This document shows, piece after piece, positions 31,268 to 31,945 of a stretch of DNA of 64,000 bases; positions within the stretch are counted from its first letter, which is position 1, and each line of letters opens with the position of its first letter. A program made the translations under genes and the position numbers. Below the pieces are notes generated by a model, which saw nothing but the letters and a program-made list of their open reading frames with translations, was not told where the DNA came from and made no database searches. Source of the DNA: an uncultured Acidobacteriota bacterium (GTDB taxonomy: Bacteria > Acidobacteriota > JAQAZP01); the NCBI GenBank assembly GCA_963836075.1, contig CAWIIB010000009.1, positions 3,330,442-3,394,441 on the forward strand, written 5' to 3'.

Positions 31268-31945
31268 ATGACAGGGAAAGATCAGCAGAATCACACCATA
31301 CCGGCCGGCGGCCTGGCGGCGCTGGACCAGGTGCAGCTCAACCCGGCACTGGAGCATCTCTTTCGCAAGGCGGCCGCCGATTGCGGCGGACCAAACGAGT
31401 GGAAAAACAGGAAGCTCTTCGAAGCTCGGGAACTGCTGGCGCTGAGCCAGATCGCGCCGCGGTTCAAGGTCATCGAACTCGATCTGCGTGAGTCATTTCG
31501 CGCCCTGGCCTTTCTCTCCACACCGGTGCCGCTCCGGCCGGACGAGAATGGCCAGCTGCGCACCGCCTCGTACGCCATGCTGGGGATCACCTACCGGGAG
31601 GCCGCGGTGATCGAGCCCCAACCAGGGTTCAACTATGTGCAGATCTTGCAACCCGAAAATCTTTTTCATCCAAATATTGCCTGCGAAGCTGGCGGGCAGG
31701 TGCTGTGTCTGGGCGTTTCCATGCCTGCGGGGCTGAGGATCAAGGAGCTTATCTTGTTGACATATGGGGCTTTGTCGATGCAGCTGGTGATGGTGGACCC
31801 CGCGGATCATGCGGGAGTCCTCAATATCGAGGCGGCCCGGTGGTGGCAGGTGCCGGCCAACCTGGCCCGGGCCCCCCTGACCCGCGAGGCTTTTCTGGCC
31901 GGCGGGGACGGGTATCTGGCAAAGGTTCAGGAGCAGAAGGCATAG
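31268..31945 (+). CDS. UBC-fold E2-like protein with an HPN motif and candidate catalytic Cys
   Basis: FNYVQILQPENLFHPNIACEAGGQVLCLGVSMPAGLRIKELILLTYGAL mirrors the eukaryotic E2 core (HPN-I...G-x-I-C-L...). RBS GGAGG lies 8 nt upstream. Confidence 0.75.
   Translation: MTGKDQQNHTIPAGGLAALDQVQLNPALEHLFRKAAADCGGPNEWKNRKLFEARELLALSQIAPRFKVIELDLRESFRALAFLSTPVPLRPDENGQLRTASYAMLGITYREAAVIEPQPGFNYVQILQPENLFHPNIACEAGGQVLCLGVSMPAGLRIKELILLTYGALSMQLVMVDPADHAGVLNIEAARWWQVPANLARAPLTREAFLAGGDGYLAKVQEQKA

Follow-up and report, generated by a model that had tools for sequence, protein, structure and literature searches.

We describe a bacterial gene that most likely encodes the thioester-forming ubiquitin-conjugating enzyme (E2) of an uncharacterised E1-E2-RING conjugation system, in which E1 denotes the activating enzyme and the RING-like protein is the candidate ligase (E3). 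It lies in a 64,000-nucleotide stretch of DNA, hereafter the window, from an uncultured Acidobacteriota bacterium (contig CAWIIB010000009.1, positions 3,330,442 to 3,394,441). We consider it probable that the gene product is a functional, Cys-dependent E2 of the ubiquitin-conjugating (UBC) fold, that it belongs to a previously uncurated family, and that it acts as the carrier enzyme in the upstream one of two modules that make up a fixed cassette of 11 genes. The gene is the following entry in the list of open reading frames (ORFs):

31268 to 31945, forward strand: E2 candidate, 225 residues, UBC fold, ATG start

A first-pass annotation had described this protein as carrying a near-canonical, eukaryote-style E2 active site within the segment FNYVQILQPENLFHPNIACEAGGQVLCLGVSMPAGLRIKELILLTYGAL. 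The segment is present exactly inside the 225-residue ORF, and the ORF itself is as annotated. The triad consists of H134-P135-N136 (nucleotides 31667-31675) and is followed by C147 (31706-31708), while a second cysteine, C139, is not conserved in the family. Six-frame translation of the window yields a single HPN-x(6-12)-C, and approximately 1.3 would be expected from amino-acid composition. The bare motif is therefore within chance, and its significance must rest on other evidence. We count it as real because the protein yields a confident UBC-fold model and because Cys147 is retained in 196 of 198 homologues, so that the candidate catalytic Cys is indeed conserved.

The AlphaFold2 (AF2) model, built from a 37-sequence alignment, has a predicted local distance difference test score (pLDDT) of 91.9 and a predicted template modelling score (pTM) of 0.88. 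It displays the UBC alpha/beta fold, in which a helix at the N-terminus leads into a four-stranded antiparallel meander, followed by a long loop and helices alpha2-alpha4, and thus bears out the fold proposed by the first-pass annotation. The annotated order of elements (strand, HPN, Cys, helix) likewise agrees with the predicted secondary structure: strand 124-128, the HPN triad, a short hairpin at 137-146, Cys147 and helix 158-169. Cys147 precedes this helix by 11 residues and is located in the loop that joins the sheet to helix alpha2, the position of the catalytic Cys in E2 enzymes. At the N-terminus, an extension of approximately 60 residues forms three helices, compared with one in class I E2s.

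In the structural comparison the solved bacterial E2s score lower (Cap2 7.0, CdnG-E2 6.8 and BubB 6.1), and the predicted structure of the E2 candidate is closer to eukaryotic E2s than to these. This part of the eukaryote-like claim stands, but "near-canonical" is an overstatement. Foldseek searches with the model gave nothing significant (the top match was a UbcH5c fusion, E=0.09), so the relation to E2s is at the level of the fold and not a close one. Alignment by hhalign to five canonical E2s was weak (probability 13.6%), with the register nevertheless as expected: H134, N136 and C147 fall on H75, N77 and C85 of UbcH5b, P153-A154 (the 'LPAG' loop) falls on P95-A96 of the E3-binding SPA loop of UbcH5, and the D-x-AGV-LN-x-EAA segment past helix 2 falls on the PNPDDPL-x-EIA segment.

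Profile searches set the protein apart from the curated E2 families. Scans of the E2 candidate against Pfam (including matches at E<=1), NCBIfam and PADLOC returned no match. The check that the first-pass annotation had proposed, against UQ_con (PF00179) and Prok-E2_A to Prok-E2_E, was likewise negative at E<=1 for the window protein and for all 37 aligned homologues, and the precomputed Pfam field is '-' for 56 of 56 E2-family clusters. The family profile retrieved no chain from the PDB; phmmer matches of the single sequence to CFAP61 and transthyretin in the PDB were dismissed as noise. When searched with HMMER against 1.84 billion representative proteins, the profile gathered 346 clusters that form a closed family of approximately 200-230 residues, with no bridge to UQ_con. 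A chance HPN...C in an unrelated protein, or a recently acquired eukaryotic E2, could be argued from the expected motif frequency and from the missing hidden Markov model (HMM) match to E2 families. Against a recent eukaryotic origin, identity to known E2s is just 12-23%, UQ_con is unmatched, and the family (~350 clusters) is restricted to bacterial operons of several phyla. We regard both variants as effectively refuted.

A census of the triad and Cys was made across 198 members of the E2 family. Cys147 is invariant in a smaller alignment, and Q144, L146, L148 and G149 are also strongly conserved. The full HPN triad, by contrast, is retained in this sequence but is not a feature of the family: it occurs in 59/198 members (30%), followed by HAN (42/198), LPN (15/198) and LAQ (11/198), and a family-wide conserved HPN, as expected of canonical E2s, is thus not found. 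Position by position, 68% of members have the His, 55% the Pro and 74% the Asn; Asn, Gln and Ser jointly account for 93% at the third position. Residue 136 (Asn here) would take the oxyanion- and loop-stabilising part of the HPN Asn. From the Asn position to the Cys there are usually 9 intervening residues in the family, compared with 10 here and 7 in UbcH5b. The identification as an E2 is correct, with HPN being a minority state. A triad that is free to vary (HPN, HAN, LPN, LAQ) next to a fixed Cys lets natural variation itself test which of its residues an E2 needs.

Degeneracy of the triad across most of the family might instead indicate a catalytically inactive UBC-fold scaffold, akin to the UEV or RWD-like pseudo-E2s, that holds the small protein or the E1 but forms no thioester. 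Pseudo-E2s typically lack the Cys, whereas here Cys147 is held across phyla and flanked by conserved residues, and the adjacent dedicated E1 carries an invariant Cys of its own. Inactive E2-like proteins do have a precedent in bacterial Ubl (ubiquitin-like protein) operons, in row 6e of Iyer 2006. We consider such a scaffold improbable, and an active, thioester-forming E2 remains our preferred reading.

The gene neighbourhood provides the second line of evidence. The E2 candidate is the third of 11 co-directional genes that extend from 29291 to 39175 with gaps of -23 to +90 nucleotides; the other ten are, in order:

29291 to 29932, forward strand: gene 1, RING-like candidate E3, 213 residues, C-terminal finger with 8 metal ligands
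29944 to 31191, forward strand: gene 2, E1, 415 residues, ThiF/MoeB/Uba-type adenylation domain (Pfam ThiF, 5.4e-24)
31950 to 32765, forward strand: gene 4, 271-residue protein, collinear in all loci, its gene always placed between those of the E2 and candidate Ubl 1
32779 to 33081, forward strand: gene 5, candidate Ubl 1, 100 residues, C-terminus ...TPK[TS]HLG with conserved terminal Gly
33172 to 34362, forward strand: gene 6, JAMM-motif protein, 396 residues, Cys-rich insert, complete JAMM/MPN+ signature in the C-terminal half
34340 to 36127, forward strand: gene 7, AAA+ ATPase, 595 residues, OB domain and one AAA module, Mpa/ARC-like architecture
36105 to 36509, forward strand: gene 8, candidate Ubl 2, 134 residues as drawn, conserved ...AGEKG followed by a tail
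36503 to 37453, forward strand: gene 9, 316-residue protein, weakly UBC/RWD-like core, candidate divergent E2 (AF2 pLDDT 79.7)
37440 to 38348, forward strand: gene 10, JAB/JAMM metallopeptidase, 302 residues (Pfam Prok-JAB, 5.9e-8)
38345 to 39175, forward strand: gene 11, second E1, short ThiF-type, 276 residues (Pfam ThiF, 6e-16)

Linkage of these genes was assessed by a tblastn search of 23 loci, taken from GTDB species genomes, with the 11 products. Gene content and order are identical at all loci with enough flanking sequence (L002, L004-L006, L008-L012, L014-L017 and L020-L023). Four further loci reached independently via homologues of the 316-residue protein (L024, L025, L027 and L028) also contain the complete cassette, which brings the collinear arrangement to approximately 25 loci. 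We had considered the difference between 756 clusters for the 316-residue protein and 56 for the E2 as a sign that the downstream module is more widespread, and have withdrawn this: because the loci sampled via the 316-residue protein hold the full cassette, the cluster counts reflect word-index sensitivity and not spread. The poorly conserved 271-residue protein, which returns 6 clusters only, was used in judging these counts.

The 415-residue E1 contains an intact GxGxxG and catalytic Asp, with G54xG56xxG59, R68, D78, K102, D145, C189/C192, C210, C281/H285 and C335/C337/C360/C363 all invariant. Cys210, the candidate catalytic residue, is located between two Zn motifs; the equivalent crossover loop holds Cys184 in ThiF and the Cys domain in eukaryotic E1s. 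The nearest PDB entries (MoeB, UBA7, ThiF, UBA6 and UBA1) cover the adenylation domain only, and the C-terminal extension of approximately 140 residues contains a conserved Cys cluster. Candidate Ubl 1 ends at the Gly in 15 of 21 aligned sequences; 4/21 add short tails (AG, ATER, GSRGSR, G and CC-type are seen past the Gly) and 2/21 read HLA. A single member of the 21 matches Pfam YukD, at E=0.054. In the 396-residue protein E222, H293-x-H295 and S324-x-x-D327 are invariant, with C310 and C316 nearly so. The 271-residue protein has invariant W45, G68, W70, W112, R199 and P221 and contains no conserved Cys or His; searches of the PDB and Pfam gave no match, and its relatives are unannotated, with none detected outside the cassette.

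The RING-like protein, whose gene is always the first of the cassette, has eight conserved metal ligands with RING-compatible spacing (C145, C148, C161, C164, H169, C183, C190 and C193). Its N-terminal domain (29291-29700) contains a conserved RVNG...AP...LL..GD segment with N97 and D111 invariant, which we take to resemble the C-terminal strands of FHA domains, although Pfam FHA gives no match. The window protein scores 25.4 bits against Pfam Prok-RING_1, under the 29.1 cut-off, and the family is matched by 8/21 orthologues (best E=6.1e-7) and unmatched in 13/21. These scores would also suit an active E2 that transfers its cargo directly, as BilB, Cap2 and Ubc9 can, with the 213-residue zinc protein serving, for example, in regulation or in binding nucleic acid or targets; the characterised Bil, CBASS Cap2 and Bub systems require no E3. 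Three observations argue the other way: the conserved ligands themselves, the invariable position of the RING-like gene directly ahead of the E1 and E2 genes, and the alignment of the E2 Pro-Ala loop with the E3-binding loop of UbcH5. RING-independent transfer is in our view unlikely, and we continue with the E1-E2-RING cascade.

In such a cascade the 415-residue E1 would adenylate the C-terminal Gly of the ...HLG protein, which in tailed orthologues would first have its tail cut off by the 396-residue JAMM-motif protein. The ...HLG protein would then be moved onto Cys210 of the E1 and handed on to Cys147 of the E2. The RING-like protein might bind the E2 via the conserved Pro-Ala loop and promote discharge onto target lysines, with the 396-residue protein also undoing the modification. 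The UBC fold, the conserved Cys, the catalytic motifs of the partners, the terminal-Gly patterns and the gene linkage are observed, while the transfer steps, the matching of each E1 to a small protein, the E3 role, the part of the ATPase and the biological role are proposals.

The downstream genes appear to form a second conjugation and deconjugation set, comprising the ...AGEKG protein with its tail, the E2/RWD-like protein, the JAB and the short E1. In candidate Ubl 2, G119, K121 and G122 are invariant and the tail varies from 0 to ~40 residues. As drawn, its ORF has a TTG start and overlaps the AAA+ gene by 23 nucleotides; since the orthologues align from approximately residue 24 (MADERRRP...), the true start is probably near 36174, giving a protein of ~110 residues. 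The two small proteins have no significant match to each other, and a single weak YukD match is all that Pfam returns for them. In the 316-residue protein C142 and C179 are invariant and C164 is ~90% conserved. Structurally it is nearest to BubB and Cap2, but no sequence link to E2s was found, as hhalign against the E2 family and canonical E2s and member-wise Pfam searches were null. The 302-residue JAB contains the full JAMM motif (E94, H151-S-H153, S161 and D164 invariant) and matches NCBIfam PRTRC_A at 4.2e-12, below the cut-off. No other gene of the cassette is as well conserved as the second E1 (53-70% identity between loci), which PADLOC matches weakly with its E1-E2 and BilD models.

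Between the two sets lies the AAA+ ATPase, with Walker A (GISGSGKS) and Walker B (LVILEE) motifs intact. Pfam identifies AAA (4.8e-14) and Prot_ATP_ID_OB_C (6e-4), and NCBIfam pup_AAA matches over nearly the full length (8.4e-25), at 87 bits against a cut-off of 505. Its nearest PDB entries are Mpa/ARC (1.7e-16), followed by Cdc48/p97, PAN and Rpt. This Mpa-like ATPase probably engages or unfolds tagged proteins. A 1090-residue ORF runs antisense to the AAA+, Ubl 2 and 316-residue genes (34196-37468, reverse strand); its sequence is of low complexity with many Pro, Gly, Arg and His residues, and it is most likely one of the shadow ORFs that are common in DNA of 65% GC.

A more ambitious possibility, which we put forward tentatively as the less probable extension of the above, is that the cassette as a whole represents an undescribed, complete bacterial ubiquitin pathway: E1, E2 and RING E3 with their own Ubl and JAMM deconjugase, locked to a second Ubl/E1/E2-like/JAB set and an Mpa-like unfoldase. 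If this were so, a single unfoldase would be supplied by both tagging cascades, or one cascade would regulate the other, and of the bacterial E2s compared this one would lie structurally nearest to the eukaryotic E2s.

Several results weigh against the scheme outlined here. His134 and Pro135 are poorly conserved, and because of this the active-site geometry may differ from that of canonical E2s. Neither small protein is a significant match to the ubiquitin-family profile by hhalign, the alignments being collinear with a probability of 1.7% for candidate Ubl 1 and a weak 10.3% for candidate Ubl 2. The 396-residue protein is a candidate JAMM peptidase by motif and gene position, since no profile supports the assignment: Pfam (also member by member) and the PDB gave no match, and hhalign against the Pfam-recognised JAB was null. 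The C-terminus of the AAA+ ATPase (...RVASVRRIEQP...L.R) does not have the HbYX or GQYL docking tail, and no protease gene accompanies the ATPase in the cassette.

Among known systems, the ubiquitin operon of Caldiarchaeum subterraneum and Asgard archaea contains the same five parts as the upstream module (a Gly-terminal protein, E1, Cys E2, RING-like protein and JAMM protein), likewise as separate genes in one operon, and the HPN of this particular E2 is a further shared feature. Nunoura 2011 and Hennell James 2017, as quoted in citing papers, give its content as ubiquitin, E1, E2, RING E3 and a Rpn11-type JAB. The archaeal E2 and ubiquitin are recognised by Pfam UQ_con and ubiquitin (PMC4327156), whereas the cassette E2 and small protein match no curated family. 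Small protein 1 ends in a single Gly (HLG) in the window and archaeal ubiquitin in GG. Compared with the archaeal operon, the cassette adds the 271-residue protein, the Mpa-like AAA+ and a full second module, and its hosts are bacterial.

The Bil system (Chambers et al., PMC10557695) is alike in being a sparse bacterial operon with separate genes for E1, E2, Ubl and JAB deubiquitinase, and in its thioester-type Cys E2, whose closest structural relatives are eukaryotic E2s. The cassette is not a Bil operon: no BilA, BilB or BilC match was obtained with PADLOC, and the sole Bil match is that of the second E1 to BilD, at 21.6 bits. Neither the E2 nor the small proteins nor the 316-residue protein had a PADLOC match. 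BilB has a CEHH motif where the E2 here has an HPN-like element, and the four-gene Bil operon lacks RING, AAA+ and second module, in contrast to the 11 genes of the cassette.

Bub (6E/DUF6527) and Type II CBASS Cap2/Cap3 are alike in achieving real conjugation by E1/E2 relatives with a peptidase (PMC11601596, and Ledvina 2023 as quoted in a citing paper). The 316-residue protein of the downstream module is the one that comes structurally nearest to their BubB and Cap2. Bub uses Ser/Tyr oxyesters and a DUF6527 serine protease, while the cassette has a conserved Cys and JAMM-type peptidases; a catalytic-Ser E2, a DUF6527 protease and an E1 without catalytic Cys, all characteristic of Bub, are not found in the cassette. 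An identity with CBASS was also rejected: in Cap2 the E2 and E1 are fused and the target is a CD-NTase, whereas E1 and E2 are separate here and no CD-NTase is present; the PADLOC 'E1-E2' models cover only the ThiF part of the cassette E1s. In the case of the Pup-proteasome system, Mpa/ARC is closest to the cassette AAA+ in both sequence and architecture, but Pup, PafA, Dop and 20S are absent from the cassette proteins and neither GQYL nor HbYX ends the ATPase. Protein A of the PRTRC cassettes (JAB, E2-like, Ubl and ThiF) is the closest match of the downstream JAB; PRTRC identity was likewise dismissed, since all NCBIfam scores fall well short of the family cut-offs and a ParB gene is missing.

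The 2011 work of Burroughs, Iyer and Aravind (Mol Biosyst 7:2261), from which Pfam Prok-RING_1-4 derive, is probably the nearest prior description, and part of the system may be covered there. It reportedly links prokaryotic RING fingers to E1, E2, JAB and Ubl genes; the E2s are said to have oxyanion-hole residues like those of eukaryotes, the E1s to end in a UFD, and the YukD-like Ubls to be possibly conjugated. The upstream gene content fits RING systems of this type, as do the eight orthologues that match Prok-RING_1 and the one small protein with a weak YukD match, though the window protein is below the Prok-RING_1 cut-off. The Pfam Prok-E2 families, which come from the same line of work, do not contain the E2 family. 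Literature searches that covered sources other than Burroughs 2009, 2011 and 2012 gave no description of the cassette, and it is not among systems 6a-6e of Iyer 2006.

The hosts of the cassette are metagenome-assembled genomes (MAGs) of Planctomycetota (Gemmataceae, Pirellulales, Tepidisphaeraceae), Verrucomicrobiota, 'Deltaproteobacteria'/Thermodesulfobacteriota, Gemmatimonadota, Chromatiales and Eiseniibacteriota. This patchy spread over phyla looks like horizontal transfer; a megablast search of a plasmid collection gave no match, no relative was found on viral contigs, and the window contains no tRNA. We favour a role in conflict or stress over a housekeeping one, because the distribution is patchy and modifying enzymes are paired with de-modifying ones. 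A 'conflict system' pattern for operons of this sort is discussed in PMC3417536, and antiphage roles of Bil and CBASS are reported in PMC10557695 and PMC11601603.

Conjugation of proteins by CBASS Cap2, Bil and Bub was recently demonstrated, and none of these characterised bacterial systems uses a RING E3 or couples to an unfoldase. Bacterial operons with a RING protein appear in PMC10557695 as rare and uncharacterised, and a Pfam-based survey concluded that no bacterial genome has a complete ubiquitin toolkit (PMC4327156). That such surveys miss the cassette would be explained by 5 of its 11 proteins, the E2 included, matching no curated family. The larger result is thus the cassette context, a fixed 11-gene, dual-module set with a RING-like protein and an Mpa-like ATPase. 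Being compact, strictly conserved and open to experiment, it is a good candidate for a bacterial E1-E2-RING cascade tied to a proteasome-ATPase-like motor, with a bearing on how ubiquitin-proteasome logic was assembled and on whether parts of it arose in bacterial conflict systems.

Some loci contain additional DNA within the cassette. An extra ~1.2-1.4 kb is present between the AAA+ and Ubl 2 genes in L005 (7248-8476), L009 (7590-9044), L011 (14896-16194) and L017 (14850-16161). In L009 and L011 it contains an ORF of ~440-515 residues with a degenerate Walker-A-like GPSGSGC or GDAGCGA, which may encode a second, inactive AAA+-like subunit. In L018 approximately 5.4 kb (10610-16020) separates the E2 and 271-residue genes, with ORFs of 549 residues on the reverse strand and 540 and 552 on the forward strand, one of which appears TPR-like by eye. 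This may mean that interruption is tolerated at this point, or may be an artefact of MAG assembly.

Upstream of the cassette lie a divergent gene and a spacer:

27343 to 28611, reverse strand: 422-residue protein with N-terminal Cro/C1-type helix-turn-helix (HTH), candidate regulator or sensor (Pfam HTH_26, 19.2 bits, below the cut-off)
28612 to 29290, no strand assigned: AT-richer spacer, probable divergent promoter region (from GC content and hexamers)

A homologue of the HTH protein adjoins the cassette at six loci or more (L002, L003, L011, L012, L024 and L025). The GC content is 53.5% in 28001-30000, compared with ~65% elsewhere, and the spacer contains 5 promoter-like hexamers on the two strands, with 1.9 expected. 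On the other side, directly downstream of the cassette, an arginine-deiminase/amidinotransferase-fold protein (39295-40059, reverse strand; Pfam ADI, 8.8e-9) is encoded by a gene that is not conserved with the cassette. Approximately 3 kb upstream of the cassette, a 454-residue sigma-54-type response regulator (receiver, AAA+ and HTH by eye) overlaps a 543-residue histidine kinase (22951-25943, reverse strand), a pair that is not beside the cassette at other loci. The reverse strand at 25972-27050 encodes two small proteins whose N-termini resemble signal peptides and which contain long Gly-rich tracts; the second has a CarboxypepD_reg domain.

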